DNA from: an uncultured Nitrososphaerota archaeon | GTDB lineage: Archaea > Thermoproteota > Nitrososphaeria > Nitrososphaerales > Gagatemarchaeaceae | DNA length: 39,024 nt | Assembly: GCA_963718895.1 (NCBI GenBank) | Contig: CAVRAG010000010.1 | Span: 1 to 39,024, forward strand | Direction: 5' to 3' | Made by a program: the position numbers and the translations under genes | The notes under the pieces: model-generated | Databases searched by the model: none | Seen by the model: the letters and a program-made list of their open reading frames with translations, nothing else | Told to the model about the DNA's origin: nothing | In this document: piece after piece, positions 14,005-38,005 of the stretch | Numbering within the stretch: the first letter of the stretch is position 1 | How the letters are laid out: each line of letters starts with the position of its first letter

Positions 14005-15273
14005 TCATTTTTGATTAATAGTCTTGTCCTCTCGCGGCGGCTTGGTTCCGCTGCGAAGCAAGAAGACCGGCAGTGTAATCACCACGAGCAGGACGGCGAT
14101 GAATGCCCAAGCGAGTGAGTAGCCGGGACCCGCCGCAATCCCAGAGAAGACCAAGGGCGCCCAGACGCCTCCAAGAAATGCGATGCCGTTGATCCAGGAG
14201 AGCTTCAGCGCCCCATACTCCTGCCTGGCGCCGCCGATTGTCCTTGCGATGCTCACCCCGAAGATGTATGCGCCAGAGGTCGTAGCTCCCACGATCAACC
14301 CAGAGAGGAGGGCCGCGTAAGCTGAGGGTACAGCTGCTATAGCTAGGCCGCCTGCCGAAGCGAAGCAGAGGACGATGAACGCTATCTTCGGGTTCGGACT
14401 TCTGTCGAACGCCCTCCCTTCCAGAGGCGCGGCGAGGATGGATACCACCACCGTGACCCCTCCTATCGCCCCAGCGATACCGGCGGCAACCCGCAGGCTG
14501 TCTTCCAAGTAGTAGACCATGAAGTAGAGGTTGGTGCTGAAGCAGATCTGTTCGGTGATCAGGCCTGCGCTCAGTATCAGCAGCCACTTGTTCAGGATGA
14601 CGGTCTTCAGCTCCGAGAACCTCACCGAGAATGTCGCGTCACTTGGGTCCCTTGGGACCAGCAGGACTAGGAGGGCGCACGCTCCCAGAGCGAGGACGCC
14701 TCCCACAATCATGCTCATTCTCCACCCGACCGCGTCACCGAGCACCGCCCAGCCCGAGATGCCGACGACCGCGCCGACGTCGAAGGTCCCGCTGTAGAAG
14801 CCGATTCCCAGGCCCTCGGATCCCTTCTTGAAGTAGCGCGTGACTAGGATTACGCCAGGTCCGAAGATGAAGGCCTCTCCGATGCCCTCGGCGAGCCTCA
14901 GAATCGTCAGAAGGAGGATTTGGTCCGCAAGGCCGATTAGGATGGACGACACGGCGATCAGGAGTATGCCTACGGTGAGGGCCTTCTTGGGACCGTACTT
15001 CGCGGCGACCAGCCCGGCAGGGAGCTGGAAGACTGCCACTCCGAGGACGAAGGTCGTTGTGACCAAGCCGAGTCCCGAGACGTTCTGGTGAAGGTCAGAG
15101 GCGATCAGGAAGAAGACAGAGGAGAACGTGTACCAGTTTATGGCGCAGACGAACTGGATGACGATTATCGTGATGAGGGCGTTCCGGTTCTCCACGCGCT
15201 CAGAGTAGCTACGTTCGGGTATTAGACCTCGATTGTCGCTTAAGTGCGGTCGGCTCTCACTCCGACGAAGCAT
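14005..15273 (-). CDS. MFS transporter
   Basis: About 12 TM segments, motif A-like G.VAAKYGPKK, LRLAEGIG. True start may be a few codons internal. Confidence 0.88.
   Translation of the reverse strand: MLRRSESRPHLSDNRGLIPERSYSERVENRNALITIIVIQFVCAINWYTFSSVFFLIASDLHQNVSGLGLVTTTFVLGVAVFQLPAGLVAAKYGPKKALTVGILLIAVSSILIGLADQILLLTILRLAEGIGEAFIFGPGVILVTRYFKKGSEGLGIGFYSGTFDVGAVVGISGWAVLGDAVGWRMSMIVGGVLALGACALLVLLVPRDPSDATFSVRFSELKTVILNKWLLILSAGLITEQICFSTNLYFMVYYLEDSLRVAAGIAGAIGGVTVVVSILAAPLEGRAFDRSPNPKIAFIVLCFASAGGLAIAAVPSAYAALLSGLIVGATTSGAYIFGVSIARTIGGARQEYGALKLSWINGIAFLGGVWAPLVFSGIAAGPGYSLAWAFIAVLLVVITLPVFLLRSGTKPPREDKTINQK
14013..14030 (-). repeat. Degenerate copy of the 21-bp element (AGGACAAGACTATTAATC)
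   Basis: Lies 25 bp upstream of the ATG at 13987 and overlaps the last codons of the MFS gene. Confidence 0.6.
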
Positions 15274-15311
15274 ACCGCAGACGTATATGCCACAGTTGAG
15301 CTATTTCGCCT

Positions 15312-15782
15312 ATGAGGGTCGAGGAAAGGTACGCGGCCACCTGGCACGGCTTCTTCCCGCGTTTCATCCTCGCCAGCTTGGTCATCGCCTTTGCAGGGGT
15401 GCTCCTCCAGTGGATTGTATCTGTGTTCATCCCCTTCACTGTCCAGAACTCCTCGAGTCTTCCCTTCAAGTTTCAGGTTCAAGAGGCAGTCTCGATCGCC
15501 TACTTCCCCTTTGCCGTCTTCGCCCTGTTCTATCTCTCGTCGAGAATCCGCATCAACCTGGGAAGCGACTACGCGGCGGTGGCAGCATCAATATTCCTGG
15601 GAGTGCTCGTGGTGTCCCTCCTCTTCGGGGTGCCGGATGCGCTTGCGTCGGTTGGAGGCAACGTGGGAAATAGCGCTCTCGATGCGCTCCTGCAGTCGAC
15701 TGCCAATGCCGTCTTTGGCTCGATCAGCTACGCGTTCGTAGGTTTCGCTGCAGTCCTCCTTTCATACAGGAGGAGGATGTGA
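15312..15782 (+). CDS. Hypothetical integral membrane protein (4 TM)
   Basis: Four hydrophobic segments, overlaps the next gene start (GTGATG). Confidence 0.72.
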   Translation: MRVEERYAATWHGFFPRFILASLVIAFAGVLLQWIVSVFIPFTVQNSSSLPFKFQVQEAVSIAYFPFAVFALFYLSSRIRINLGSDYAAVAASIFLGVLVVSLLFGVPDALASVGGNVGNSALDALLQSTANAVFGSISYAFVGFAAVLLSYRRRM

Positions 15783-16483
15783 TGACCGCCATCGCGGATC
15801 CGGCGCCCGAGAGCGGGGAGGACTCTCTGAACGGGGTCAGGGCCGTGGTTCTGATTGGATGCGTGATGGTCGGGGTCTATCTCCTCTCCAGCGTCTTGCA
15901 GGTGTATGAGAGGGACCTCTTGAACACGCTCTTCCCGTATTCCTCTCAGTTTGCCTTTCTGAGAGGGCTCTTCCCGAGTCCGTGGTCGGATGACCTCGTC
16001 GATTGGCAGAACGTAGCCCTGTTTGAAGTGGTCCCGTTCCTTCTCTTCTTCTACTTCGCGGTCAGGATGAGGATAGACCCGATGGGGAGGGTCCTGCCAA
16101 TGGTCACTGCGATGGTTGTGCTCGGCATTGGTCTTTCTTTCTTCAATCTTGTGTTAGGAGTCTATCAAAACAACATATCCAGTCTGCTCCTCAACGGGTC
16201 GTTCACCATCCCCAACATGAGCCAGACCAATCCCCTGGCAGGTATTCTCTCCTTGATTTCGTCGACCTGGGAGCTAGGGTATATCTTTGAGAGCGGTGTG
16301 GTGTTTGCCGCGCTCGGCATGACGGGTATCGCGTTCGGAAGTTTCTCGGGAGAGACGCCGTACTGGATTCTCAAATCCTGGTTCGCATCGCGTGGCCCGC
16401 CGGAGGAAGAGGTCCCAGTCCTTGATGACACGAACTCGCCCCAGCCGGCGGCCGCCGACTCGTCAGAAGAGCGCATCAACTGA
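15779..16483 (+). CDS. Hypothetical integral membrane protein
   Basis: Four hydrophobic segments, acidic tail, similar P.L.F.F...R.RI segment to the upstream gene. Confidence 0.72.
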   Translation: MMTAIADPAPESGEDSLNGVRAVVLIGCVMVGVYLLSSVLQVYERDLLNTLFPYSSQFAFLRGLFPSPWSDDLVDWQNVALFEVVPFLLFFYFAVRMRIDPMGRVLPMVTAMVVLGIGLSFFNLVLGVYQNNISSLLLNGSFTIPNMSQTNPLAGILSLISSTWELGYIFESGVVFAALGMTGIAFGSFSGETPYWILKSWFASRGPPEEEVPVLDDTNSPQPAAADSSEERIN

Positions 16484-16497
16484 GCAGCTTCAGCTAC

Positions 16498-18174
16498 TCA
16501 ATGTGGATTGAAATTCGTGTTCGGTTGCTGATGGTCGGTGCCTTCCGCAGATACCGGGCTGCCTTCGGTCGTCGCTACCACCTGTGGAGCATGTTCTGGG
16601 ACGGCTTCCTTCTGGGACGACGTCTTGGTCAGGCGTCCCCGGAGGAAGAGCGCGAAGACGAAGGCAATCCCGAGGAGCCCCAGCATGACCAGGAAGGTCT
16701 GGTCGTACGAGCTGATCAGCGAGCTCTCGAGGGAACCAAGGTAACCCGCGCACAGAGGCATCGGCGGACTTGCCGAAGAGCACGCGGCGCTGGGCGAGGG
16801 GTCGAGGGACGCAAACCTTGTCGCCTGGAATGAAGCCAGTACAGACAACCCGACGGCACCCCCAAGTGACTGAAGGAATTGTATCAATCCTCCCGCCTCG
16901 CCGACGTCGGCGGTCTTCACCTGGTTCTGGGCGGCAAGGAGGAAGACCGGGAAGGTAAGGCCGATCCCGAAGCCGAGGGGAATCAACGATAGGATGATTC
17001 CGCCGACCGGGATGACGCTGAACATGAACTTCCACAGCGGGGTCGTGGTCGCAAGCTGGGACAGGCTGGCCATGCCGATGCCCCCTATGGTAATGCCGAG
17101 TAGTGTTACGACCCGGTAGGGGAGCCGGGTCAGGAGCTGCCCGCCCAGTGCTGCTCCGAAGACCAATGGTATGACCAGGAAGTAGAGGATGTCCCTGACG
17201 GTCTCCGAGGAGTTCGAGGCGCCGTGCACGAGGACGACCCCGACCACCAGTGAGAGGAACGTCGCGACGGGGAAGAAGACCGTCCCGATGAAGTAGGTCG
17301 CGCCGCCCCCTGCCGCCATGACTCGGTGGCTGAAGAGCCTGAGGGGGACCAATGCGTTGTCGGCGTTCTCGGCCTTGAGCTCCCAAGCGACAAAGCCGAC
17401 CACCAGCGCCGCGCCGAGGCCGAAGAGGCCGAGCGTCCGCGAGTCGGTCCAAGCCCATCCGCTGTCCGCTATCTGGTAGAGTGGGAACATTATGGAGGCC
17501 ACCCAACCGATGAGCAGCGCCGCTCCCACCAGGTCGAACTTCCGGGCGCGCTCAGGGCGGAGGGGCCCAAGCGTCGTTGCGACGAGCGCGAGGCCGGCGA
17601 GACCGACGGGGATATTCACGTAGAACACCCAGCGCCAGGTCGTGTACTGCACGATGGCGCTGCCGATGAGCGGCCCCGCCACCACCGCGATGCCGAAGAC
17701 TCCCGAGAGAGCACCGATGACCCTCGCGCGGGTCTTCGGGGGAAAGACGACCGCTACGATGGCGATGCCTACCGGGAAGAAGCCGCCGCTGCCGAATCCT
17801 TGGATTGAACGGAATATGATGAGCTCGGTAAGGTTCTGGCTGAGGCCCGAGAGGATCGAGCCCACGATGAAGACCACGAGGCCGCCGAGGAAGACGTTGC
17901 GTCGGGACCAGAGGTCCGATAGCTTGGCGAAGATAGGGATGCTCGCTGTGGAAGCGATGACGTACGCGCTTATGACAAATGTTCCGCTGTTCGGCTCGTG
18001 GAACTCAAACAGGATAGTCGGAAGCGCTGTGAGCGCGACGAAGTTATCGAGCGCACCCATAAGGAGGGCGAGAAGAATCCCGACGGTGATTAGCAGCTCA
18101 GACCTTGGGGTGATAGGAGCTGGAGAGGCACTGGTGACAGTGATTTCGGCTGAGGAAATCGTTTTGTTGGCCAT
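16498..18174 (-). CDS. MFS drug:H+ antiporter (DHA2, 14 TM)
   Basis: LD...V.TALPTI, KLSDLWSRR, RSIQGFG, GPLIG, WRWVFYVNIPVG motifs. Confidence 0.92.
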   Translation of the reverse strand: MANKTISSAEITVTSASPAPITPRSELLITVGILLALLMGALDNFVALTALPTILFEFHEPNSGTFVISAYVIASTASIPIFAKLSDLWSRRNVFLGGLVVFIVGSILSGLSQNLTELIIFRSIQGFGSGGFFPVGIAIVAVVFPPKTRARVIGALSGVFGIAVVAGPLIGSAIVQYTTWRWVFYVNIPVGLAGLALVATTLGPLRPERARKFDLVGAALLIGWVASIMFPLYQIADSGWAWTDSRTLGLFGLGAALVVGFVAWELKAENADNALVPLRLFSHRVMAAGGGATYFIGTVFFPVATFLSLVVGVVLVHGASNSSETVRDILYFLVIPLVFGAALGGQLLTRLPYRVVTLLGITIGGIGMASLSQLATTTPLWKFMFSVIPVGGIILSLIPLGFGIGLTFPVFLLAAQNQVKTADVGEAGGLIQFLQSLGGAVGLSVLASFQATRFASLDPSPSAACSSASPPMPLCAGYLGSLESSLISSYDQTFLVMLGLLGIAFVFALFLRGRLTKTSSQKEAVPEHAPQVVATTEGSPVSAEGTDHQQPNTNFNPH

Positions 18175-18370
18175 GGTTTCACGTTATTTGCACGTATTCG
18201 TCCTGTGCGCCTAGAACATCCGCGTCCGTCCTTGATGGCTCCGTTGTAGGATTTGCATCCAGATTGTCCTCTGATGATGGAAGAGACAAGTTCTGATGCT
18301 TTAACGTATTGTGCGTCCGATATAAGGCTATTGGGTGTCCGATACCCTTTCCTCATTTGAGCTGAACGCG

Positions 18371-18841: not shown

Positions 18842-18894
18842 GTAAGGCCGAGGCGATTCTTAAGTTGTGAAAAGCTTTTGGATTCTGAAGGCGC

Positions 18895-19254: not shown

Positions 19255-19362
19255 ATTCGTCTAGTTGTTCAGGGTTGGTTGATTAGTCTTTGGAACTGTC
19301 CAGCAGAACGTCCCTCTTTGAGAGACGTTGTTTGCCTCCACAGACGGACTTGTCATAAAGGA

Positions 19363-21569: not shown

Positions 21570-21881
21570 TGTACACTTGTGGGGTGTTCGGCTGTGGAAC
21601 CGCCGCACTACAGGGTCTCGAAGAAGGCGCCCGGCATGGTCATCGAGCCGTCCTGCGTGAACTGCCGGTACTCGAGGCAGTTCGGTGAGCTCGGCACGGT
21701 GTGCATGTGCTACTTCGCGCTGGTCCTGCTAGGCCGCATATGCGACAACTGGGACGGGGGCGAGGTCAGGATGGTGGATTCGAGGGACGCTTCCATGACC
21801 ATCGGCTTCTTCCATAACTCGTCGGTAACGCCTGAGGAGCGGGGGATCGTCGCAAGGACAGAGCTCACGGATATGCGCTAA
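21570..21881 (+). CDS. Small Cys-rich hypothetical protein
   Basis: CVNCRY...CMC...ICDNW. Start uncertain. Confidence 0.5.
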   Translation, partial: CTLVGCSAVEPPHYRVSKKAPGMVIEPSCVNCRYSRQFGELGTVCMCYFALVLLGRICDNWDGGEVRMVDSRDASMTIGFFHNSSVTPEERGIVARTELTDMR

Positions 21882-22444
21882 CAGTGAGTTTGGAATGTGG
21901 GGCTGAACGTCGTGCTCGTCGTCCCTGACGGGATGTAGAGGGTGACGCACTGGACGCTCTCCGCGCCTTCGGCGGTGGAGGTGACCTGGTAGCTCCCTCC
22001 CATGTACGTGACGTTGAAGAAGAATGTAGAGCCGGTGCAGCAGACCTGTATGGTCCCGTTGATGTCAGTGCTGAGGATGCCCAGGCTCTTCGTGGTGTTG
22101 GCGCTCGTGGCTGAGCACAGGTCGTCCGGGGTCGAGTCCTTGGCCTGCACGGGTACCGAGTTGATCGGGCTCCCGGTGGAGCTGTTCTTGACGATTAGGA
22201 ACAGCGGCTCTGAGTCCAGCCTGATGCACGTCGTGGTGAACATGGTGATGGTCGTCGATGAGGACGAGGTCGTCTGGGGTCCGGTGGTGGTCGTGGACCC
22301 GACGCCTGAGGTCGTCCCAGGAGGCAGGTTCGTCGAACTCGTTTGCGACTGCAGTGATGTGAGCCCAATCGCTCCGACTAGGACGACTGCGATTGCGACT
22401 ATGGCGATGACGGCCCTCCCAATCGCCGTTCTCCGAACTGTCAT
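21878..22444 (-). CDS. Membrane-anchored Ser/Thr-rich surface protein (RRxAIGR anchor, domain X)
   Basis: Basic plus hydrophobic N-terminus, Thr/Ser linker, Cys-containing domain ending CVTLYIPSG...FQTHC, paralogous to 25220-25843. Confidence 0.8.
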   Translation of the reverse strand: MTVRRTAIGRAVIAIVAIAVVLVGAIGLTSLQSQTSSTNLPPGTTSGVGSTTTTGPQTTSSSSTTITMFTTTCIRLDSEPLFLIVKNSSTGSPINSVPVQAKDSTPDDLCSATSANTTKSLGILSTDINGTIQVCCTGSTFFFNVTYMGGSYQVTSTAEGAESVQCVTLYIPSGTTSTTFSPTFQTHC

Positions 22445-22475: not shown

Positions 22476-22496
22476 GATTAATAGTTATGTCCGAAC
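22476..22496 (-). repeat. 21-bp element GTTCGGACATAACTATTAATC (exact)
   Basis: Plus strand reads GATTAATAGTTATGTCCGAAC, 31 bp upstream of the ATG at 22444. Confidence 0.95.
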
Positions 22497-25219: not shown

Positions 25220-25843
25220 TCAGCAGGACCCCTGGAACTCGGTGATGGTCGTGTTCGTCCTGCCCGAGGGGACGTACAGCGTGGCGCAGGTGACGGAGAC
25301 GGGCCTAAGGCTGGCATGGAATGTATAGGTCTGGCCCGAGTATGCGACGAGGAAGGAATAGCCAAAGTTGTCGTTTGAGTTGAGCGGGTACCATTGGGTG
25401 TCGGCCGAGGTCGTGAAGTTTATGGTCCTCTGCCCTGTCGCCTGAGAGGTGCCACAGCCGGCTGGGTCATTAGTGGCGATTACGAGAGCGCCCGCGACGG
25501 AGGTCTGGCTGGAGTCGGACAGAATCCTGATGAAGAGTCCTGCAGGCTCGCCGGTGATGCTGCATTCGGAGGAGGTTGATGTTTCTGTGAAGGTCGATGT
25601 GCTCGTGACGGTCAGTGTAGTCTGAGAGGTTACCGTCTGCGTCTGAACAGTGGTCGCGATGGAAAGCTCGGTTGTGGTCTGCGTTGCCGTCGTGGTCGAG
25701 GTCGCGGTGGAGGTCGATGTGCTCGTCTCAGTCTTCGCGTTCCCGAGATAAGATGAGGTGATGACAGCTGCCCCTACTACCAACGCCGCTATGACAATCG
25801 CCGCAGCGATGACGAGATAGCTTCGGGATGATCGCTCGCTCAA
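25220..25843 (-). CDS. Membrane-anchored Thr-rich surface protein (SRSYLV anchor, domain X)
   Basis: SRSYLVIAAAIVIA anchor, long Thr linker, C-terminus CATLYVPSG...FQGSC. Confidence 0.8.
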   Translation of the reverse strand: MSERSSRSYLVIAAAIVIAALVVGAAVITSSYLGNAKTETSTSTSTATSTTTATQTTTELSIATTVQTQTVTSQTTLTVTSTSTFTETSTSSECSITGEPAGLFIRILSDSSQTSVAGALVIATNDPAGCGTSQATGQRTINFTTSADTQWYPLNSNDNFGYSFLVAYSGQTYTFHASLRPVSVTCATLYVPSGRTNTTITEFQGSC

Positions 25844-25874: not shown

Positions 25875-25895
25875 GATTAATAGTTATGTCCGAAC
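25875..25895 (-). repeat. 21-bp element (exact)
   Basis: 31 bp upstream of the TTG at 25843. Confidence 0.95.
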
Positions 25896-25918: not shown

Positions 25919-27244
25919 TCAGCCGGACGCGCATCCCGGACCGCTTTCGGTGAGGCTCATGAAGAACAGGACGGTGCTGTTGTCCTGGTTGGAGACTACG
26001 GCGGCGTAGCGGTCGTCAGCCGAGAGCGCGACGCTGGAGACCGTGCGGTTCAGGGAGTAGTCCAAGAGCCGGACCCCTTGACCGTTGAGAAAGAGTACGT
26101 TCGTCGACCCAAGGTTGCTCTCCCAGAACGCAGGAGTCGTGCATGGGGACCCGCTGGATGAAGTAGTAGGTGGTAGCTGCTGGCCGGTGTAGTTCGCCAC
26201 TAGCTGCCCTCGTTCGTCGACCACCAAGGTGGACCAATTCGTCAGCAGGACGACGTCGCTGCTCTGATTCGCGGTCTGGATTGCAAGCGCCGGGCTGTAC
26301 ATCTGGAAGGACCAGAGAAGGTTGCCGCTGTGGTCGAAGAGGTAGAGCGTCCCGTTCTCCCCGGATACGTCTGAGCTGGCCAAGGTAGAGCCGTCCGAAG
26401 CGACCCGCACTCCAGCCACGGACGTCGATCCTCCCGGTGACAGGGAGGTGTAGTTCCAAAGAAGCTTACCGGCGCTGCTGAACGACAGGAATGACCAGCT
26501 CCAGTTCTCCGTGTTCGGCCTGTACATGACCGAGGCGACAAGGTTGCTGCCGTCGGGTGACATGTCGATGCTGTTGACGTTTCCATTGCTGCCCCCGCTG
26601 AAGCTCCAGAGGGTCTGTCCATGGTCGTTCATGTAGAGAATCCCGCTCTCGGTTGCGACGGCCATTCTTGAGCCATCGGAGGAGAGTTTGACCGTTGGTC
26701 CTGGTCCGCCGAGGCTCTTGTTCCAGAGCATCTTGCCCTGTCCGTTGAAGAGATAGAGCGCGCCGTTTTCATAGAATCCGGAAGGACCCCGCGCGTTTTC
26801 ATATCCGCCTACGGCGACCAGGGAGCCGTTTGCTGAAACGCTGATCGAAGAGACAGAATGGTTCAGAGCGTAGCTCCAAAGGCTCTCGCCCTTGTCGTTG
26901 AACGCGTAGACGCTGCCGTTGCCTATTGCCTGCCCGGTACCTACGACCACCTCAGAGCCGTCTTGGGTCAAGGCGACCGGTCCGATTCCGTCGTCGTCCT
27001 GAGAGTAGATTGTGACACCCGAGGCGAAGTTCATTGTTTTGGTCCACAGGATGCCGGGTTGTGTGGAGGTAGTCTGTGACTGAGTAGCAGATGGGTCAGA
27101 AGTGGTGGATATGATGGTCGTGCAGCAGTAGATTGGGTGTGGACCGGTAGAGAAGTATGATCCGAGGCCTATCGTAGCGGCCAAGACCACAATGACGATG
27201 GCAGCAATGATTGTTCTTCCGATTGCCTTTCGCCTGTGCTCCAC
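25919..27244 (-). CDS. Membrane-anchored PQQ/WD40-like beta-propeller protein
   Basis: RRKAIGR anchor, repeated S.DGS..V and G.LY.F...G..LW blades. Confidence 0.85.
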   Translation of the reverse strand: MEHRRKAIGRTIIAAIVIVVLAATIGLGSYFSTGPHPIYCCTTIISTTSDPSATQSQTTSTQPGILWTKTMNFASGVTIYSQDDDGIGPVALTQDGSEVVVGTGQAIGNGSVYAFNDKGESLWSYALNHSVSSISVSANGSLVAVGGYENARGPSGFYENGALYLFNGQGKMLWNKSLGGPGPTVKLSSDGSRMAVATESGILYMNDHGQTLWSFSGGSNGNVNSIDMSPDGSNLVASVMYRPNTENWSWSFLSFSSAGKLLWNYTSLSPGGSTSVAGVRVASDGSTLASSDVSGENGTLYLFDHSGNLLWSFQMYSPALAIQTANQSSDVVLLTNWSTLVVDERGQLVANYTGQQLPPTTSSSGSPCTTPAFWESNLGSTNVLFLNGQGVRLLDYSLNRTVSSVALSADDRYAAVVSNQDNSTVLFFMSLTESGPGCASG

Positions 27245-27275: not shown

Positions 27276-27296
27276 GATTAATAGTTATGTCCGAAC
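27276..27296 (-). repeat. 21-bp element (exact)
   Basis: 31 bp upstream of the GTG at 27244. Confidence 0.95.
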
Positions 27297-31717: not shown

Positions 31718-32221
31718 TCAGGGGCCAGTCGACGTCGACGTACATGTGAAGCTGAGGAACACCTGCAGGTTGACCACGACGTCTGACCCGCTGACCTGGA
31801 AGGTCCCGCTCCCCGGATAAAGTTCGACGAACCCTCCGCCGCCGCTCACGGTGTAATTGTAGATGCCCGGTCCAAGGGAGAAGGTCATCCGCGTCAGGTT
31901 TTGGTCCGGTACGACCGTCTGGGAGTAGCCGGTCGGCAGGGGAAGCGTCTGGTTCGACGGCTGTACCTGGGTCAGGCCTCCAATCGTCACCGCCCACGGC
32001 ATGATGTTGTACTGGCCGCAGTAGCGGACCTGCTGGAACGTCACCGCATAGAGCCGCGCTCCGGTGCTGGTAACGGTGGTTATACTGGTGAATGTGGTGG
32101 TCGCGGTCTTCGCTCCCCCTACCGCGACGAAGACACTTGCGGAGATCAGAACGCCTGCTATGACAATCGCAGCGGCGATGACGAGATAGCTCCGGCTGCC
32201 TGGGATGGTTGACGCAATCAA
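31718..32221 (-). CDS. Membrane-anchored surface protein (SRSYLV anchor, YxVTFQQ Ig-like domain Y)
   Basis: SRSYLVIAAAIVIAG anchor, LYAVTFQQ...PWAVT...GIYNYTV...SGTFQVSG. Confidence 0.8.
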   Translation of the reverse strand: MIASTIPGSRSYLVIAAAIVIAGVLISASVFVAVGGAKTATTTFTSITTVTSTGARLYAVTFQQVRYCGQYNIMPWAVTIGGLTQVQPSNQTLPLPTGYSQTVVPDQNLTRMTFSLGPGIYNYTVSGGGGFVELYPGSGTFQVSGSDVVVNLQVFLSFTCTSTSTGP

Positions 32222-32228
32222 CGCCTTC

Positions 32229-33029
32229 CTATGGTACCAGGTCCTCTCCGGAACCGATCATGAGTTGGTAAGCGCCGCCTTGGATGGGAGCCGGCAGCTC
32301 GATGGTAATCGACGTGGCGCTGGATGCCATGCAGTCGCCCTCTACGCCGTATTCGCCGTAGCAGGGCGGATTCGAGTACCACGCGGTGACCTGCTGCGAG
32401 TTCAGGTAGACTTGGGTGGCGAGCCCTGGGAAGAGGTCGCTCATCCCGCTCCCCGCGGTTATCGTGATATTGTATCCACCGTTGTTGGTCGGTGAGCTCA
32501 GGGAGAAGTTCAGCTTCCAGACGTCCCAGACGGCGTAGGTGTACCCAATCCCGCCGCCGCACATGACGCCGCAGGCGGTCGGCGTGGTCGTGTTGGTGTA
32601 TGTGTGCGAACAGGCGGCCGCAATGAGCGTGAGGGCCGGAGTGACGCTCACATTCACTCCAACATTGTTGGTCTTGCTCGTGTTCACGAGGACCAGCGCA
32701 GAAGCCTTCGTCGAGGATGCCGCCGAGATTCCACAACCGTAGTGGATGATGGTCGTCATGGGTGGAGGGACGTAGAGGCTGGAAGAAGAGGTGACCGTCG
32801 TGCTGGAGCTTGAGGTGGTCGTCGATGCCGTCCGCGATTGGGTGGAGTTCAGGCTGGTTGTGGTAGTGATGGAAGCCGTCGGTGGTACACTTGAGGTAGT
32901 TGCAATACAATCATGACATGTGTTCTTCTGCGACTCAAGCGCGACGAGCCCTACGACTCCAACAACGAGGATTAGAACCGCGACCATCGCAATGAGGGAG
33001 TTCGCGATTCCCCTTCTTCGAGCCCTCAT
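32229..33029 (-). CDS. Membrane-anchored Ser/Thr-rich surface protein, class III signal-like N-terminus
   Basis: RRRGIA followed by a hydrophobic stretch, long S/T linker, Cys-rich C-terminal domain. Confidence 0.8.
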   Translation of the reverse strand: MRARRRGIANSLIAMVAVLILVVGVVGLVALESQKNTCHDCIATTSSVPPTASITTTTSLNSTQSRTASTTTSSSSTTVTSSSSLYVPPPMTTIIHYGCGISAASSTKASALVLVNTSKTNNVGVNVSVTPALTLIAAACSHTYTNTTTPTACGVMCGGGIGYTYAVWDVWKLNFSLSSPTNNGGYNITITAGSGMSDLFPGLATQVYLNSQQVTAWYSNPPCYGEYGVEGDCMASSATSITIELPAPIQGGAYQLMIGSGEDLVP

Positions 33030-33061
33030 GTCAAGTCGATCGTTTGAAAGGTCGTTTTTGT

Positions 33062-33082
33062 GATTAATAGTTATGTCCGAAC
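33062..33082 (-). repeat. 21-bp element (exact)
   Basis: 32 bp upstream of the ATG at 33029 and only 13 bp from the stop of the upstream gene. Confidence 0.95.
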
Positions 33083-33095
33083 CAGTTCCGCCGCG

Positions 33096-33548
33096 CTACC
33101 GGGTCGGGCAGGTTGGCGCCGTATCTAGGTGTGGGGTGACGCAGTAGAGGGTGGAGTTTGTGAACCATGCAGTGTAAATCACCGTTGATTGGCTCCCGTT
33201 GATGGTGGTGATGCTCAGCCCGCCCGTCGCGTCGGTGTGGGTCTGCGTGATTGTTCCACCGCCGATGACGGTGTCGTTGTGGACGTAATAGTAGGCGCCG
33301 TTGTAGCTAATTAGTTCGACGCTGAGCGACGCGTTGACCTCCGATGATGGACAAGGCGCGGCCATCGCTTCGCACAGTCCGATGAACGCAGGCTCTCCGT
33401 GGACGGTGACGTTGCTGTTGATGACTCTCAGTCCGTTTCCTGAAAACTCGCGGCTATACGCCCAGTAGCCCGTCCCGACGGCTATGACCACCAGGATGAC
33501 GGCAACTACCATGACCGTCTTGGCGAACGCCGATCTCTGATGCTCCAC
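33096..33548 (-). CDS. Membrane-anchored surface protein
   Basis: GTG start EHQRSAFAK plus TM helix, Cys pairs, YTAWFTNSTLYC...CP. Confidence 0.75.
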   Translation of the reverse strand: MEHQRSAFAKTVMVVAVILVVIAVGTGYWAYSREFSGNGLRVINSNVTVHGEPAFIGLCEAMAAPCPSSEVNASLSVELISYNGAYYYVHNDTVIGGGTITQTHTDATGGLSITTINGSQSTVIYTAWFTNSTLYCVTPHLDTAPTCPTR

Positions 33549-33576
33549 CAAGTCGTTCCCTGAAGACGTGATGCTC

Positions 33577-33597
33577 AATTAATAGTTATGTTCGGAC
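33577..33597 (-). repeat. 21-bp element variant GTCCGAACATAACTATTAATT
   Basis: 18/21 identical to the consensus, 28 bp upstream of the GTG at 33548. Confidence 0.88.
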
Positions 33598-33735
33598 GTC
33601 TTGGGCGAGCAGTCATACCGGGACGCGATTAGGCATCTAACTCATGGTGATGTTCTGGCTCGGCTGCACGTGCGAGCCTATGTTGTTTGTACGTGAGGCA
33701 GCCGGCACTCCTGCACCGCACCGCCGGACCGCTGC

Positions 33736-34140
33736 TCAGTCGCCGATGTAGATCACGCGGTCCATGCCCTTGAAGTGTGGGTCCCCCGTGATTATCTTTC
33801 CTCCCTTCACCATCGCTACGGCCAGCACGAATGAGTCCAGCATCCCCCAGTCCTTTGTCTTCTTCTTTTGCTTGAAGTTCATGTCGCCGGCGACCTCCGC
33901 GACCTCGGCGTCAATCTCGGTCACGACGGTCCTGCTCCTCACGAACGTCACAACGCGCGCCATCAGCTGTCGTGGAAGGCCGTGCCTGAGCATCGATTCC
34001 TTCAGCTCGGCCAGCACCGACGCGGGCGTTAAAGCCTCGGAGACAGTCTCCAGAGCTCGCGCCACCCTCTCTGCCTTGGGAGAGTCCAGGGCGTACTCGA
34101 CCCAGGCGTATGCGTCGAATACGACCGCTCCCTCTTTCAA
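33736..34140 (-). CDS. vapC: PIN-domain toxin
   Basis: VFDAYAWVEY, LAEL, GMLDSFVLA, ITGDPHF acidic PIN residues. Confidence 0.9.
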   Translation of the reverse strand: MKEGAVVFDAYAWVEYALDSPKAERVARALETVSEALTPASVLAELKESMLRHGLPRQLMARVVTFVRSRTVVTEIDAEVAEVAGDMNFKQKKKTKDWGMLDSFVLAVAMVKGGKIITGDPHFKGMDRVIYIGD

Positions 34141-34146
34141 CCGGGC

Positions 34147-34347
34147 TCAGACCTCCCTGTCTTCGGAGCCGCGCCGGAAAGTGAAACCCGAGCCCTTCAG
34201 GATGCCCCGGATGTCCCCTGCGGGCTTCTCGATCCTCTTCACTAGGATAACGTCTCCCTCCTTCGCCCCAATCTCCTCGAGCTTCCTTTTTGGGATGAGG
34301 ATTCCGTATCCCGTGCCTATCCTTCTGACCTTCGCCTCCAATACCAT
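34147..34347 (-). CDS. vapB: AbrB/MazE/SpoVT-type antitoxin
   Basis: KVRRIGTGYGILIPK...G.KEGD, directly upstream of vapC. Confidence 0.88.
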   Translation of the reverse strand: MVLEAKVRRIGTGYGILIPKRKLEEIGAKEGDVILVKRIEKPAGDIRGILKGSGFTFRRGSEDREV

Positions 34348-34364
34348 GCTCGTACTGATGCGGC

Positions 34365-34382
34365 ATTATAATGGATTATAAT
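34365..34382. promoter_or_regulatory. Putative vapBC operator/TATA
   Basis: ATTATAAT-GG-ATTATAAT, two palindromic 8-mers 18-35 bp upstream of vapB. Confidence 0.55.
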
Positions 34383-34806
34383 ATAAGCGCATCGGAGCCG
34401 GAGCGACAGGCTGCTCTTATGGCAACGGCCTTGGTCGATTACCGCCCGGTCAGCGTACTCAGCTTCGTCTTGGCGGCAGTTCGTACACCGAAAGTCTTGT
34501 TTGTACTCATTCCGCGTGACCGACATGACGTGTGGGACCTCGACGACTATGGATGCCACTTCGCGACTACCTTCGTTCGCTTGCAGGTAACAGCTTTGAT
34601 TTCTGATTGATAGTAATGTCAAATCTCGGCGTCTTGCTACCTCGCTCGGACCGGCTGGAAGGTGACCGGCCGTACGTCTACGAAGTAACACAGGCGTGCC
34701 GGCGGTACCTGGGGATGGTACATTTGGCTTGCGCGTGGATGACCTGCCGGCAAGGAGAAATTATTGGTGAGGCTTTTATTCGGCAAAGAAGAATTCGGGC
34801 GATATC

Positions 34807-35397
34807 ATGAGAAAAATATTCCTATACATGGCTATCACTCTTGATGGGTTTGTTGCAGGGGCAAGGAACGATCTGGATTGGTTTACGCCTCCGATGAACG
34901 ACGAGGAGCTAAACAAGGACATTGTCGATATAGTCGAGAGTGCAGATACGGCAATCATTGGATTTCCGACAGGCCCCGGCCTTGTCGCCTACTGGCAGAA
35001 CGTGGAGAAGAATGAAAAGACCCGGGGGTGGGAGATGGCGATTGCAAAGGCCGTAAACAAACTTCACCCAATCGTAATCTCAAACAGACAGGAGACGGTC
35101 GAACCAGGCATCGAGTTGGTAGTTGCAAGGGACGACGGCGAATTTACAAGAGTGATAGATGCGATAAGGCAGAGAAAGGGCGGGGCCATATATGTACCCG
35201 GCGGAGCACGTACCGCGCAGACGCTTGTCAGGCTGGGATTGGTGGACGAATATGTTCTCATGGTACACCCGGTGGCAATCGGTGAGGGCAAGCGCCTGTA
35301 CACCAGTACGGTCAAGCTTGAGTTGGTGAGCTCGAAGGCCTACAAATCCGGAGTCGTCCAGATGCGCTATCGCCCACTCGAGGCCATGAATCCCTAA
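34807..35397 (+). CDS. Dihydrofolate reductase-like (RibD C-terminal domain) protein
   Basis: MAITLDGFVA, GGA..AQTL...GLVDEY.L.VHPV.IG.GKRL, SGVV..RY. Confidence 0.9.
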   Translation: MRKIFLYMAITLDGFVAGARNDLDWFTPPMNDEELNKDIVDIVESADTAIIGFPTGPGLVAYWQNVEKNEKTRGWEMAIAKAVNKLHPIVISNRQETVEPGIELVVARDDGEFTRVIDAIRQRKGGAIYVPGGARTAQTLVRLGLVDEYVLMVHPVAIGEGKRLYTSTVKLELVSSKAYKSGVVQMRYRPLEAMNP

Positions 35398-35577
35398 CGA
35401 GTTCGGAACACAGCCCCACTTTGCGGTGCTTAGCTGTACTCTGTGGCTGATTCGCTAGACTAGTCGTTGGTAGTGCAATCGTCGCTACGATGGAGCGAGG
35501 AGCGGCTCCTCTCAAGCTATAAGCGGCCTTTAGCCGATGAACAACGACTGATTTTGGAGGCTAGTCCACGGAGCCTC

Positions 35578-36546
35578 ATGAAGGCGGTAGTCTGCACGCG
35601 CTACGGGCCGCCCGAGGTCCTCGAGATTGAAGAGGTGCAGAAGCCCATACCCAAGGACGATGAGGTCCTTGTGAGGGTCTATGCTACGACGGCGGCGCGA
35701 GGTGACTGCGAGCTGCGGAGCCTCAAGCTCCCTCTGTTGCTGCAGATTCCGGTACGGATTGGGTTTGGCATGAGGGGGCCGAGGAGGAGAATCCTGGGTC
35801 AGGAACTCGCTGGGCAGGTAGAGTTGGTGGGGAAGGACGTGATGCGCTTCAAGGAGGGCGACAAGGTCTTCGCCTTCACGGGCTTCCGCCTTGGCGCGTA
35901 TGCCGAGTACGACTGCCTAGGTGAACGGGCGCTCATGACGACGATGCCGTCGAACATGACCTACGAGGAGGCGGCAGCTGTACCGGTGGGCGGGCTCCAT
36001 GCGGTGCACCTTCTGCAGAGGTCGCGCATCCAGCCCGGACAGAAGGTCCTGATCGTCGGCGCAGGTGGGTCAATAGGCACGTTCGCGGTGCAAATCGCCA
36101 AGGCCTCAGGGGCCGAGGTGACCGGGGTGGACATCGGGAGGAAGCTGGATGTGGTGCGCTCAATTGGTGGGGACCATGTGATTGACTACATGAAGGAGGA
36201 CTTCACCGAGGACGGGCAGAAATATGACGTCATCCTCGATGTGATTGGCAAGAGCTCGTTCACGAAATCGATTAGGTCGCTGAGTGAGAAGGGGTTCTAC
36301 CTCTTGGGGAACCCTGGGCTCGGGGAGCAGCTCCAATCGGCAATCACAAGGAAGGGCGGCAAGAGGGTGATAGGCGGCACGGTCGCCTACGGTACCCAGG
36401 ACTTGATTCTGCTCAGAAAGTTGATTGAGGATGGGAAGTTGAAGTCGGTGATTGACAGGCGCTACACGCTGGACCAGATTGTTCAAGCGCATAGGTACGT
36501 GGATGAAGGGCGGAAGATAGGAAATGTTTCGGTATCCGTAGCCTAA
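35578..36546 (+). CDS. NAD(P)-dependent MDR-family oxidoreductase (quinone reductase-like)
   Basis: MKAVV...YGPPEVL, GAYAEY, EEAAAVP, GAGGSIGTFAVQIAK, IDRRYTL...AHRY. Confidence 0.92.
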   Translation: MKAVVCTRYGPPEVLEIEEVQKPIPKDDEVLVRVYATTAARGDCELRSLKLPLLLQIPVRIGFGMRGPRRRILGQELAGQVELVGKDVMRFKEGDKVFAFTGFRLGAYAEYDCLGERALMTTMPSNMTYEEAAAVPVGGLHAVHLLQRSRIQPGQKVLIVGAGGSIGTFAVQIAKASGAEVTGVDIGRKLDVVRSIGGDHVIDYMKEDFTEDGQKYDVILDVIGKSSFTKSIRSLSEKGFYLLGNPGLGEQLQSAITRKGGKRVIGGTVAYGTQDLILLRKLIEDGKLKSVIDRRYTLDQIVQAHRYVDEGRKIGNVSVSVA

Positions 36547-36598
36547 AAGTTACAAGAATTATAGGGAGGTTTAACTCGATGACGAGTATACCCACGCT

Positions 36599-36925
36599 CC
36601 CCTTGACTTCCACTGGAACCTAAAGATGAACCTCAAAATATTTCATATTTTGATATGGTAAAGATGCTCGCTCTTGGATGGAATTATACAGACATAATAC
36701 TAATCATCCATTTCTTGTGAGTTATGCCTAGTTAGTGGTCACCCGACCAGGAAAGGAGCTCCAAACAACCTCCACTGGAAACGTAGGGGTGTGGGTGATC
36801 CAGTGAACTCAAGTGAACCATACAGTAAACTAAGTGTGGAAACGACCTCATATGATGAAAAGAGTATGTTTCCAGGCTCAATCCCCCTTTGGCCGGACGA
36901 CCCACCCCTCCATTTCCACTGGAAC
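36599..36925. other. Replication origin (oriC): three ORBs and an AT-rich DUE
   Basis: ORBs at 36599-36619 (-, GTTCCAGTGGAAGTCAAGGGG), 36771-36790 (+, TCCACTGGAAACGTAGGGGT) and 36904-36925 (-, GTTCCAGTGGAAATGGAGGGGT). AT-rich tract at about 36620-36730 between the first inverted pair, within a ~525-bp non-coding gap. Confidence 0.88.
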
Positions 36926-37072
36926 CTGTCCAGCCTAGCACGCTCATCGTCCATCTGTGAAGAAGTGTGAACCCCCCAAATCGTATCGCCAGGTAGTCAA
37001 GACTAGTTTGCAACCTGTTCACAAGTTCACACCATCGGGCCATTTATCGGGACCTGTAGCGGCTGCACTCCC

Positions 37073-37474
37073 TTGCGGAAACGGGTGAAGGTCGAGTTCC
37101 AGGACGGTACCGGTACCAAGTACAGCCTTGCCGTAGAGGGACGCATATCCCGCGAGAAGGTCCTCAAGATCATGGACCTCATGGAACTAGTGGAGGGCAA
37201 CGACGGCATAGAGCAGCCCCCTATGGACGAGTCGACCACATTCGGCCAGGTTTTCAAGATAATCGAGACGTCCTACATCGGCAAGGAGTTCTCCTCGGCA
37301 GACATTGCCCGGGACTACGAAGACCAACACGGCCAACCCATAGCGCTAAGCACGGTCTCCACATACCTCTCACGGTTCGCCGAGAGGGGGACCCTCAAGA
37401 GGCAAAAATTCGGCAACTCGTGGGTGTACCGGAGGGTGCACCTAGCACCTGACCAAGTACAGACGCTCAAGTAA
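37073..37474 (+). CDS. Conserved archaeal protein with C-terminal winged helix, origin-adjacent
   Basis: RVKVEF.D..G.KY...EG..SREKVLK N-domain, FSS.DI..DYE...LSTVSTYLSR...G.L.R wHTH. Confidence 0.8.
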   Translation: MRKRVKVEFQDGTGTKYSLAVEGRISREKVLKIMDLMELVEGNDGIEQPPMDESTTFGQVFKIIETSYIGKEFSSADIARDYEDQHGQPIALSTVSTYLSRFAERGTLKRQKFGNSWVYRRVHLAPDQVQTLK

Positions 37475-37768
37475 CCACAGCAACCCATCTTAGGTACCTA
37501 ATTAACCGGCTAGGTCAATTCGCAGACGCAGCTACTAGACAAGTCTCGAGAAACCATCACAAACGTTCTTCCCGTGACCGATGTACAGGACCACCCACCC
37601 CTGCGTCTTCGACTATCTCGAAAGACCTGTAGTCGCCGACCCTCAGCCTCCAGAACCGCCAAGGTTTGAGCCGGTCCCCCTTGTCGGGAGACGACTGAAG
37701 CTCCAGCATCGACTGCACGACCAGGGAAGAGAAGGTTTTTGTTGTTCTTCAATATCAAAATGACTCTA

Positions 37769-37996
37769 ATGGCAGAGGACACGACCTGCGATTATGCGAA
37801 GGGACAACCACGGTGCGGAAAACGAGGTTTCAGGGAAGTATGGAAGAAACGAGGCGACGGAAAGTGGCATGTCCTCTGCTACAAGCATTTCATCAATGAG
37901 AAGAAGATGGACCCGCCTCGCAGCGTGGGGCAGCATTCAGCAGTGAACCTCGGCCGGTTTCGACTTGTCAGAACGAACTGTGGCGTTCGGACATAA
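37769..37996 (+). CDS. Small Cys/His (Zn-finger-like) hypothetical protein
   Basis: C...C...LCYKH pattern. Its stop codon is the TAA inside the 21-bp element. Confidence 0.45.
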   Translation: MAEDTTCDYAKGQPRCGKRGFREVWKKRGDGKWHVLCYKHFINEKKMDPPRSVGQHSAVNLGRFRLVRTNCGVRT

Positions 37997-38005
37997 CTAT
38001 TAATC
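37985..38005 (+). repeat. 21-bp element (exact)
   Basis: GTTCGGACATAACTATTAATC, 22 bp upstream of the GTG at 38028. Confidence 0.95.

Follow-up and report, generated by a model that had tools for sequence, protein, structure and literature searches.

The 21-bp element GTTCGGACATAACTATTAATC, which is dispersed among surface-protein genes of an uncultured acid-soil archaeon (a Ca. Gagatemarchaeum-type Thaumarchaeote), appears to be both the on-switch and the seam of a gene-swapping system. It is best read as the invariant core of a putative specialised archaeal promoter module of approximately 27 bp, and we consider it probable that the element is a regulon promoter that, being invariant, also offers a handle for short-homology recombination.

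Motif copies and the genes behind them

In the window, i.e., the whole analysed stretch of 39,024 nt, exact copies of the motif without any mismatch occur at 22476, 25875, 27276, and 33062 (all minus strand) and at 37985 (plus strand), as given in the preliminary description. The 18/21 variant at 33577 (minus strand) was likewise recovered, with three mismatches to the 21-mer. At a threshold of three mismatches, the window contains six matches compared to none in 100 dinucleotide shuffles, and the whole genome contains 48 copies. In case of the two degenerate copies proposed earlier, the one at 14013 (GAGAGGACAAGACTATTAATC; four mismatches when position 10 is taken as A or T) is retained as a weak copy with an intact TATA half, whereas the one at 28914 matches at 11 of 21 positions and was not counted. 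The motif copies of the window and the genes associated to them are as follows.

22476..22496, minus strand: exact copy of the putative 21-bp promoter module, 0 mismatches; GTTCGG box, BRE-like ACATAAC, and TATA-like TATTAATC
21878..22444, minus strand: motif-led gene, 188 aa, N-terminal anchor and S/T-rich linker; ATG 31 nt past the motif
25875..25895, minus strand: exact copy of the putative module, 0 mismatches
25220..25843, minus strand: motif-led gene, 207 aa; TTG 31 nt past the motif
27276..27296, minus strand: exact copy of the putative module, 0 mismatches
25919..27244, minus strand: motif-led gene, 441 aa, N-terminal anchor and PQQ-like beta-propeller (PF13360, E 5e-12); GTG 31 nt past the motif
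33062..33082, minus strand: exact copy of the putative module, 0 mismatches; its 5' edge doubles as a homology junction
32229..33029, minus strand: motif-led gene, 266 aa, N-terminal anchor and S/T-rich linker; ATG 32 nt past the motif
31718..32221, minus strand: second gene of the 33062-motif unit, 167 aa, RSYLVIAAAIVIAG-type anchor, without a motif of its own
33577..33597, minus strand: copy with 3 mismatches, GTCCGAACATAACTATTAATT, leading 8 nt in the opposite orientation to the canonical box
33096..33551, minus strand: motif-led gene, 151 aa, N-terminal anchor; TTG 25 nt past the motif
37985..38005, plus strand: exact copy of the putative module, 0 mismatches
38028..38909, plus strand: motif-led gene, 293 aa, N-terminal anchor; GTG 22 nt past the motif (leaderless geometry)
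14013..14033, minus strand: degenerate copy that retains the TATA/BRE half and has lost the GTTCGG box
13046..14008, minus strand: ORF following the degenerate copy, 320 aa when read from the first ATG

All six copies within three mismatches are followed by a co-oriented gene for an anchored protein at the previously noted distance of 22-32 bp, with start codons 31, 31, 31, 32, 25, and 22 nt past the motif. No Pfam family was found for the 188-aa gene, which has a relative with 88% nucleotide identity, also motif-led, in genome G011. For the 207-aa protein, a transmembrane helix (residues 9-27), a disordered S/T linker, and a C-terminal beta-sandwich are predicted (domain pLDDT >90); all of its 37 relatives are unnamed or annotated as hypothetical, and transthyretin/adhesin-like matches are weak. 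The 167-aa gene begins 8 nt past the stop of the 266-aa gene. Behind the copy at 33577, whose leading 8 nt read GTCCGAAC, i.e., canonical GTTCGGAC in reverse complement, the 151-aa gene is a paralog of the unit led by the motif at C4:297815 (67% amino acid identity). In case of the degenerate copy at 14013, one ATG is situated 5 nt and a second (13987) 25 nt downstream, and the ORF encodes a basic N-terminus, a transmembrane segment, and an S/T-rich stretch.

Of 220 distinct motif instances, which were collected from this genome, further genomes, and peat metagenomes, 193 precede an ORF whose product has a membrane anchor at the N-terminus. According to a crude hydropathy test, a single N-terminal anchor is encoded by 34/48 motif-led ORFs of the genome compared to 244/5749 background ORFs, with a start-codon choice that favoured anchored candidates; 14/48 copies lack a clean anchored ORF. 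Conversely, 27 of the 112 ORFs of the genome that combine an anchor with an S/T linker are motif-led. Pfam matches of motif-led genes are few and of the envelope type (PBP_like_2, beta-propellers, PMT_2, and TatC), and most of the products are predicted to be fixed in the membrane by an N-terminal anchor, which is followed by a Ser/Thr-rich stalk and a domain outside the cell. The earlier statement that no copy precedes a housekeeping gene is true in the window and, given the 34 single-anchor ORFs, mostly so genome-wide, with exceptions such as a TatC-like fragment, a PMT-type glycosyltransferase gene 128 nt downstream, and copies without a convincing ORF. The downstream genes had also been described as largely unrelated, which is valid in part only, since 18/48 are joined in one similarity cluster, often linked via a common N-terminal anchor module.

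Among the 21 further genomes of the genus that were searched, which have 0-26 copies each, 19 contain the motif. Beyond the genus, it occurs in two of nine genera in the family, with 6 copies in one and a single copy in the second, and no copy was found in the 20 genomes of genus g25. A reversed-pattern control gave a single match in 61 genomes. As far as sequence can tell, the motif-led gene set is lineage-specific.

Anatomy of the putative promoter module

Both the reading of TATTAAT as a TATA box and that of the motif as a regulon promoter, put forward in the preliminary description, are in good agreement with motif anatomy and spacing. Positions 14-21 (TATTAATC) correspond to a TATA box and positions 7-13 (ACAWAAC) to an A-rich BRE, preceded by an additional box at positions 1-6 (GTTCGG). 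The motif is identical at 21/21 positions across copies and species. Its 5' edge is as sharp as claimed, with information content at background level upstream of G1, and conservation extends approximately 6 nt beyond C21 as A-N-R-A-A, giving a module of about 27 bp outside of which the information content of the aligned copies reveals no conserved positions.

Positions 7-21 conform to the A-rich BRE and TATA pattern of the genome's own promoters. Upstream of 1956 ORFs chosen for little start-codon ambiguity, AT-only 5-mers have their maximum at -30/-31 relative to the start codon, and the genome therefore fits largely leaderless transcription. The 329 generic promoters of the genome, which are degenerate unlike the 21-mer, are enriched in A at -7 to -4 ahead of the AT run (0.32-0.45), and A occupies -7, -5, -3, and -2 of the motif, with A or T at -4. 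Upstream of the A-rich stretch, i.e., where GTTCGG sits, nothing informative was observed in these 329 promoters. Similar boxes also occur in tRNA upstream regions, e.g., TTTTAATC ahead of tRNA-Glu.

In the set of 220 instances, the start codon is always co-oriented and lies at a median of 33 nt past the motif (IQR 29-36), with 84% of the starts 19-46 nt past it; the AT run of the motif begins 8+d nt ahead of the start codon, where d has a median of 33 and a minimum of 22-23. Hence three sequence features expected of a BRE/TATA core promoter, namely, an AT-rich box at about 30 nt, an A-rich BRE, and co-orientation with a fixed gene distance, are present. Downstream of the motif, purines peak at 81-84% at +23 to +25 nt, and aligning the sequences at the motif sharpens this peak compared to aligning them at the start codon. 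The peak does not change across spacing classes. Transcription probably starts at the purine approximately 24 nt past the motif, and motif-led mRNAs would be leaderless or carry leaders of about 8-15 nt. With this presumed start, the GTTCGG box would be placed at about -43 to -38.

An identity of 21/21 is far beyond the need of known BRE/TATA elements and suggests a further constraint, e.g., a long-footprint protein or a recombinase. The motif probably defines a regulon of the cell envelope that is governed by a single dedicated factor. This factor, be it a regulator or a paralog of TFB, would read the GTTCGG box. Neither of two candidates follows the motif: an adjacent wHTH gene occurs in all 10 genera including the motif-less ones, and a core-only TFB subfamily is lacking in G013 and G007, both of which are rich in the motif.

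Homology breakpoints and the probable route of exchange

The earlier proposal that gene units are shuffled at the motif holds with respect to the breakpoints, which in comparisons of paralogs, strains, and species sit exactly on the motif, and fails with respect to the proposed Xer/tyrosine-recombinase mechanism. Breakpoints unrelated to the motif, named beforehand as the outcome of strain alignments that would speak against the proposal, were thus not what the alignments revealed. At base level, alignments are 100% identical as far as C21 or from G1 onwards and unrelated outside. For pairs sharing only the downstream side (n=329), the alignment begins at position 1 in 116 and at position 0 in 48 cases. 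In the window, the match to the paralogous unit C4:297243-297609 ends at 33081, the 5' edge of the motif at 33062.

A plain regulon promoter or operator, with junctions that result from flank decay or from rearrangements scored at the first common sequence, agrees with the anatomy and fixed spacing but appears quite improbable. One-sided pairs are indeed mostly of low identity, where purifying selection on the anchor-coding 5' end can mimic recency and confounds the counts (for flank pairs of 93-97% identity, 14 change partner and 4 retain both flanks; for 85-93%, 83/85 change partner and 2 retain both flanks), and other island indels break elsewhere than at the motif. Flanks with at least 97% identity, however, are too recent for decay, yet 9/34 of these pairs change partner at the motif (slack 0-3 nt in eight switches and 12 nt in one), whereas 25 retain both flanks. 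Furthermore, duplications with random ends would bring unit-specific DNA along upstream; instead, both homologies meet at G1. Breaks fall across the motif in 20/71 cases versus 6/71 at control points of equal distance (Fisher p=0.004), and among the 1456 HSP endpoints of a self-BLAST, 20 are no more than 30 nt away from a motif compared to approximately 1.8 expected, 14 of them at motif positions 0-2 or 21-23. Due to the fact that all sequences are MAGs or metagenome contigs, of which the short-read contigs may contain chimeras at repeats, and that contamination of G000 and G010 is estimated at about 5% each, the mosaic junctions might also be regarded as chimeric joins at the repeated 21-28 bp. 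We judge this highly improbable: a repeat of that length is short compared to the larger k-mers of assemblers and to long reads, the junction pattern is equally present inside single long G000 contigs, and it spans records of apparently different assembly methods, as judged from contig names. Moreover, the differing flanks are each intact in other records, resulting in three-way mosaics in which L135 equals L106 on the upstream and L139 on the downstream side, and L221 has its upstream side from L143 and its downstream side from L123. Next to no credence can be given to the idea that the motif is a dif site, or half of one, at which XerA resolves chromosome dimers; its sole support is the likeness of TTCGGACATAA to Thermococcales dif arms suggested in the preliminary description. 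The 48 copies per genome, gene-proximal and co-oriented with genes, compare to one dif site per replicon, inverted 11-bp arms are lacking, and the two-armed site suggested as a search target gave no match genome-wide (4-10 nt spacer, either order, up to 2 mismatches per arm). The idea of an Xer-arm half-site used by a tyrosine recombinase was not borne out, as a second arm, a hairpin at the six window copies, and an association with tyrosine recombinases (PF00589) are all missing.

A true site-specific cassette system, in which the motif is the site of a dedicated recombinase that would cut out and insert promoter-led units, with the promoter embedded or overlapping, is conceivable though unlikely. 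It would account for motif-edge junctions that are razor-sharp even at 97-100% identity, for a 21/21 conservation exceeding what a promoter requires, and for the three genome copies that have the identical double variant ATTCGGACATAACTATCAATC in unrelated flanks. At two junctions the partner lacks the motif, yet homology ends at G1 +/-2, and these are therefore not explicable by crossover inside a shared motif. Units are also transferred between species: G000 and G010 are 75-84% identical in housekeeping DNA and 93-99.8% in island segments, one of which starts in either genome at position 1 of the motif. A six-motif array of G002 has an integrase gene directly upstream of it and in the same orientation. 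Against such a system, an inverted partner arm and a hairpin are both absent; when the six window copies were folded together with 110 nt of their upstream flank, as a test for an attC-like structure, none did better than shuffled sequence (z +0.08 to +0.76). The recombinase search, which covered tyrosine recombinases (PF00589), gave counts out of step with the motif: none in G010 (24 copies), one in the single-contig genome G007 (17 copies), approximately 22 kb from the closest array motif, and three in G015 (no copies). Those near the C8 array of G000 flank an intron-containing tRNA gene, as is typical of ordinary integrative elements. Motif position 10 (A or T) has no reliable linkage to either flank, which counts against a single fixed crossover point, a second break zone exists where the anchor-coding module ends and the linker begins, and some island indels break away from the motif.

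For the regulon promoter as a recombination handle, the likely route would be homologous or short-homology recombination, and the conserved anchor-coding 5' end may serve as a secondary handle. Due to the second break zone, the unlinked position 10, and the lack of an association with tyrosine recombinases, we do not think that a dedicated site-specific recombinase is needed.

Relation to known systems

According to the available text of the respective studies, the UV-inducible promoters (ups, tfb3) of Sulfolobus acidocaldarius contain an A(N)TTTC hexamer that spans -44 to -39 relative to the start site (PMC5817253), and fla promoters contain EarA sites upstream of the BRE (PMC5512572). As in these promoters, a short non-palindromic box is located directly 5' of BRE/TATA (PMC5817253, PMC5512572), and with a start about 24 nt past the motif GTTCGG would occupy about -43 to -38, similar to the Sulfolobus hexamer (PMC5817253). 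Unlike the degenerate hexamer with its ordinary core, the 21 bp are nearly invariant at up to 48 promoters and across species, and unlike the Sulfolobus promoters the module is known from sequence alone; the available text does not mention the hexamer as a recombination junction (PMC5817253). As far as described there, these boxes, like GTTCGG, mark a functional gene set including surface structures, and TFB recruitment by a bound factor is the presumed action in both cases.

Integron cassettes are mostly promoterless and carry attC at the 3' end. Cassette boundaries at a repeated site are observed here as well, and integrons, including the archaeal ones as far as the available text describes them, share with the motif-led genes the one-orientation arrays of mostly single-gene units and the occurrence of units in several species (PMC9668308). 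The motif differs in being 5'-located and promoter-bearing, and its arrays are mixed with ordinary genes. An integron was rejected, as neither a folded attC-type site nor a consistent inverted partner nor, in the PF00589 searches, an IntI beside the array was found. In the vsp, vsa, and vpma systems of Mycoplasma, a locus-encoded Xer-like recombinase acts on inverted sites with a single promoter. Exchange of DNA at the conserved 5' region of variable surface-protein genes is common to both, except that the sites described here are mostly direct repeats with their own TATA box and that no locus-encoded recombinase was found.

Homology handles at the 5' boundary of variant surface-protein genes are the 70-bp repeats located upstream of the VSG genes in Trypanosoma brucei and, for the vsp/vlp genes in Borrelia hermsii, the upstream homology sequences; in these systems, silent genes are copied into one expression site. 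Similar to these handles, the motif forms a short conserved 5' edge of divergent surface-protein genes at which recombination tracts start, and genes are exchanged as units. A silent archive feeding a single expression site is not indicated, since each copy has a full BRE/TATA-like module and all copies could be expressed together; the handle is the promoter itself. In this free-living soil archaeon, exchange is observed between genomes and not in the form of a programmed switching.

One dedicated promoter would drive 48 units in the genome, mostly encoding anchored outer-surface proteins. Since all units open with the identical 21-28 bases amid islands that are otherwise little alike, DNA exchange would resolve at the module. 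Due to the fact that paralogs, co-existing strains, and different species have one side of the motif in common, either upstream or downstream, and switch exactly on the motif, the genes would move, duplicate, and be replaced as promoter-led units.

Occurrence and promoter-like anatomy of the 21-bp element

The 21-mer GTTCGGACATAACTATTAATC is present in the window in five exact copies and one copy with three mismatches, as stated in the preliminary description and confirmed here, and without a match in dinucleotide shuffles of the window (0/100):

22476, minus strand, exact copy
25875, minus strand, exact copy
27276, minus strand, exact copy
33062, minus strand, exact copy
37985, plus strand, exact copy
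33577, minus strand, copy with three mismatches

The window corresponds to the entire 39-kb contig C10, which carries an archaeal 16S gene, of a 3.13-Mb assembly (11 contigs, estimated 80.5% complete). This source genome (G000) contains 45 copies with at most three mismatches, a count that rises to 48 when either A or T is accepted at position 10, and no match to a reversed-pattern control. The copies are clustered on C4 (264-386 kb), C7 (463-468 kb), C8 (1158-1224 and 1488-1537 kb), and C10. An exact-match scan of species-representative genomes yielded 71 loci, all from MAGs labelled Nitrososphaerota, Nitrososphaerales, Thaumarchaeota, Nitrosopumilales, uncultured archaeon, or 'Candidatus Gagatemarchaeum stordalenia', which places the source organism within Group I.1c of the Thaumarchaeota. 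The motif is carried by 19 of the 21 other genomes of the genus and by two further genera of the family (6 copies in one and 1 in the other); in the 20 incomplete genomes sampled from the genus g25 it was not found (0/20), which is not to be read as absent.

Alignment of the copies revealed information from the base preceding G1 (C in about half of the copies) to approximately 6 nt past C21 (A-N-R-A-A) and background elsewhere. Thus, the element is a site of about 27 bp and not the tip of a longer repeat. Position 10 is dimorphic: of 122 instances, 67 carry A and 55 carry T. A double variant, ATTCGGACATAACTATCAATC, is common to three copies of the source genome (C4:274441, C4:370074, and C8:1488021) with unrelated flanks; none of these heads a typical single-anchor ORF, and one precedes a TatC-like fragment. 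Seven of the 48 copies, which head genes of different families, are immediately preceded by a conserved element of the spacer, about 75 nt long, GGCGGAGGCGCAATGAACCCTATACATGGCA...TTTACGGCATC...GGCTAGAGG (C8:1189483-1189570 and six other motif upstream regions). A further copy of this element, at C8:1567914-1567975, is not followed by a motif.

Upstream of 1956 long ORFs of the source genome, chosen for a first start codon at most 60 nt from the preceding in-frame stop, the frequency of AT-only 5-mers has a sharp maximum at -30/-31 relative to the start codon, as is characteristic of leaderless mRNAs transcribed from a TATA box. In 329 promoters of this set, the AT run is preceded by an excess of A at -7 to -4, with no conservation further upstream. 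Motif positions 7-21 (ACAWAAC-TATTAATC) match this native BRE/TATA pattern, and GTTCGG (positions 1-6) falls where ordinary promoters of this genome carry no information. Boxes like those of the motif were also seen upstream of several tRNA genes (21 found by ARAGORN). Rfam detected only two tRNAs in the window, one of which, at 321-407 (+) with 55 bits, is absent from the ARAGORN calls; probably several further tRNAs were missed genome-wide, introns being the likely cause.

Of 220 distinct motif instances, taken from the source genome, other genomes, and contigs of peat metagenomes, 193 precede an ORF that spans 55 codons or more and encodes a hydrophobic segment at its N-terminus. The distance from motif to start codon has a median of 33 nt (IQR 29-36) and is 19-46 nt in 84% of cases. 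A spacing of 22-23 nt is, judged from sequence, the exact leaderless geometry, and the commoner spacing of 30-37 nt would imply leaders approximately 8-15 nt long. Purines peak (81-84% A or G) at 23-25 nt past the motif, and this peak is sharper with motif anchoring than with start-codon anchoring; it keeps its place at +23 to +25 for the three shorter classes of spacing and lies at about +24 to +27 when the start codon is at 36-40 nt. This fits a predicted initiator at a fixed distance from the motif. If transcription starts at the purine peak, GTTCGG occupies about -43 to -38, near the position of the Sulfolobus UV-regulon hexamer, which sits at -44 to -39 (PMC5817253). The promoter reading of the preliminary description is hence supported, at the level of sequence, by the match of positions 7-21 to the native pattern and by the set spacing of the start codons. 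Usage of predicted start codons in the 193 motif-led ORFs is unusual (TTG 80, ATG 77, GTG 36). Oligo-T terminators upstream of the motif are small in number (9/220 vs 1/220 and 4/220 in controls). In the variant at 33577-33597 (-), the canonical GTTCGGAC is replaced by its exact reverse complement, GTCCGAAC, which makes up the first 8 nt. The near-palindrome GTYCGRAC of the box would suit a dimeric DNA-binding protein.

Motif-led proteins and candidate regulators

A single N-terminal membrane anchor was predicted for 34 of 48 motif-led ORFs vs 244 of 5749 background ORFs of the source genome, a crude comparison in which start-codon choice favoured anchored candidates and the background includes spurious ORFs. 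Of the 112 ORFs of this genome combining an anchor with a Ser/Thr-rich linker, 27 are motif-led. Most of the encoded proteins lack a Pfam family (35 of 40 outside the window); within the window, one of six motif-led genes, a PQQ-like propeller, exceeds the curated cut-off. Other matches are PBP_like_2, a PF09826 propeller, PMT_2, and a TatC-like fragment. For the 207-aa protein of the window, 37 relatives were retrieved from a large protein collection, all unnamed or annotated as hypothetical; its predicted structure comprises a transmembrane helix followed by a disordered Ser/Thr stalk and a confident beta-sandwich, with weak PDB matches to adhesin-like and transthyretin-like folds. The motif-led proteins form one linked cluster of 18 members, five small families, and 19 singletons, and an anchor module of 30-40 residues is 75-90% identical across proteins with unrelated ectodomains.

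Among the winged-helix and TFB candidates, no regulator of the motif was identified. A 133-aa winged-helix protein encoded at 37073-37474 (+) of the window, with a weak Penicillinase_R/BlaI-like match (E 2.8e-4), is 85-95% identical in four other genomes (G011, G001, G010, and G007), and in G000, G010, and G007 its gene immediately precedes one that is led by the motif. It has matches in 38 of 60 other genomes and is single-copy nearly wherever found, except for two matches each in G041 and G066. Because these matches cover all 10 genera of the family, motif-free genera included, the protein carries no phyletic signal and was rejected as the motif regulator.

Across 22 genomes of the genus, the TFIIB-domain count follows the motif count (rho 0.84, or 0.57 per Mb, uncorrected for phylogeny and genome size). 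A "core-only" TFB subfamily was found only in the related genomes G000, G001, G002, G010, and G011. Its paralogs comprise 147-242 aa with cyclin folds, without Zn-ribbon or B-reader, and share a C-terminal ...RIEVPA tail; several of their genes come immediately after large ORFs for surface proteins that are anchored to the membrane at the C-terminus. The expanded subfamily was rejected as the motif factor on account of its absence from the motif-rich genomes G013 and G007, and no motif was found near any TFB gene.

Core-only TFB paralogs of the source genome
C8:989749-990327, paralog L243
C8:869975-870484, paralog L246
C8:851592-852101, paralog L247
C8:458010-458525, paralog L249
C4:216305-216778, paralog L250

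Homology junctions at the motif and proposed exchange between species

Pairwise comparison around the 48 copies of the source genome gave homology on the downstream side only in 44 pairs, upstream only in 21, and on both sides in 4. Young paralogs (88-93% identity over 421 nt) match from exactly G1 onwards, and homology of upstream-only pairs ends at motif positions 21-26. In a whole-genome self-BLAST, 20 of 1456 HSP endpoints lie at most 30 nt from a motif vs about 1.8 expected; 14 of these 20 fall at positions 0-2 or 21-23, one of them from a 2.8-kb duplication. Across several species, 122 instances gave 329 pairs with homology downstream only, 68 with homology upstream only, and 4 with homology on both sides; alignments of the first class start at position 1 in 116 pairs and at position 0 in 48. 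In base-level alignments, sequences are 100% identical up to C21 or from G1 and unrelated beyond, and three-way mosaics around the motif are present.

Since the island interior is not collinear between the window and the species representatives G010, G011, G007, and G002, the strain-level test was taken from near-identical contigs, with 80 metagenome loci added. With one flank identical to 97% or more, both flanks are retained in 25 pairs and a switch occurs in 9; the corresponding numbers are 4 and 14 at 93-97% and 2 and 83 at 85-93% identity. Selection on the 5' end that encodes the anchor, itself a second break zone, confounds the lower bands. In a matched control, which compared persistence of homology across the motif with that across a motif-free point at equal distance, breaks in pairs of at least 93% identity amounted to 20/71 across the motif vs 6/71 at control points (p=0.004). 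The shuffling at this site proposed in the preliminary description is thereby supported. In its breakpoint check, strain pairs do switch at the motif. A 950-bp indel between 98% identical segments of G000 and G010, which deletes a motif and the 5' end of its gene, has one end 8 nt before the motif and the other within a repeat-rich propeller gene. Thus, not every island breakpoint lies at the motif.

Position 10 is identical in 25 of 25 same-context pairs at 97% identity or more, so that the A/T dimorphism is not noise. As a marker for placing the crossover point, at 93% identity or more it is the same in 6 and different in 9 downstream-only pairs and the same in 6 and different in 2 upstream-only pairs, although few pairs are available.

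Housekeeping DNA of G000 and G010 is 75-84% identical (three contigs), vs 93-99.8% over 0.2-4.9 kb for island segments, one of which begins at motif position 1 in both genomes.

Multi-kb segments of 95-99.8% identity
G000 C7:463384-478759 and G010 C3:969611-979831
G000 C8:1219439-1223461 and G010 C2:98886-101251

These segments point to either recent inter-species transfer in surface islands or cross-contamination of bins. The island adjoins cdc6/orc1 and PolD-small-subunit genes (window 6519-12055), a neighbourhood shared with G010 and G007, and may lie near a replication origin.

Mechanism and biological meaning

Short-homology recombination at an invariant promoter is favoured as the mechanism of unit exchange, after the evidence against a dedicated system was weighed with hints of more than passive homology. 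These hints, namely the strictness of the 21 bp, two junctions in which the partner lacks the motif, and the three identical double-variant copies with unrelated flanks, would suit a true site-specific recombination system acting at the motif, which we nevertheless regard as improbable. Neither a second inverted arm, searched for in G000, nor an attC-like fold at the window copies was found, by which both a dif-like two-arm site and an attC-like one were ruled out, and position 10 shows no reliable linkage to either flank beyond the most recent events (few pairs). Integrases are present but unrelated to motif occurrence: their presence does not track the motif across genomes, and the two near the C8 array, divergent tyrosine-recombinase genes at G000 C8:1190965-1193700 (locus L086, 6963-9693), flank a 141-nt intron-containing tRNA gene. 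They are adjoined by ParB-like and PLD-like genes, and the region probably represents one or two integrated mobile elements; in G010, a motif-led gene and not the recombinases is located beside the same tRNA gene. From the preliminary interpretation, the promoter and the shuffling at the site are therefore retained, but not the Xer/dif reading.

The motif system is akin to known kinds, i.e., regulon promoter boxes and homology-handle or cassette systems. It is tempting, if rather speculative, to see in it an integron-free cassette system of Gagatemarchaeum, in which the 21-bp promoter would be at once the boundary of the unit, an envelope-gene switch operated by one dedicated factor, and a specific seam for capture, duplication, deletion, and interspecies passage. 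Exchange would then proceed by an undescribed enzyme or by an unusually efficient short-homology pathway, and the cell surface would vary at the population level. Literature searches retrieved no earlier description of such a system. Group I.1c Thaumarchaeota (Gagatemarchaeaceae) are described in their genome paper as abundant in acidic soils and peat, not ammonia oxidisers, and represented by genomes from metagenomes (PMC10640624); the words "promoter" and "motif" do not occur in the main text of that paper.

The motif gives direct access to an entire regulon of surface proteins, most of them unannotated, can be searched for as a marker in any metagenome, and supplies a concrete candidate promoter for in vitro transcription or for genetic tools yet to be built. 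Should the junctions stem from a genuine mechanism of exchange, archaea would possess an equivalent of integron cassettes or antigenic-variation handles whose module boundary is also the promoter. Such a mechanism would also account for the assembly of hypervariable surface islands and for their sharing between species with only about 80% identity elsewhere.
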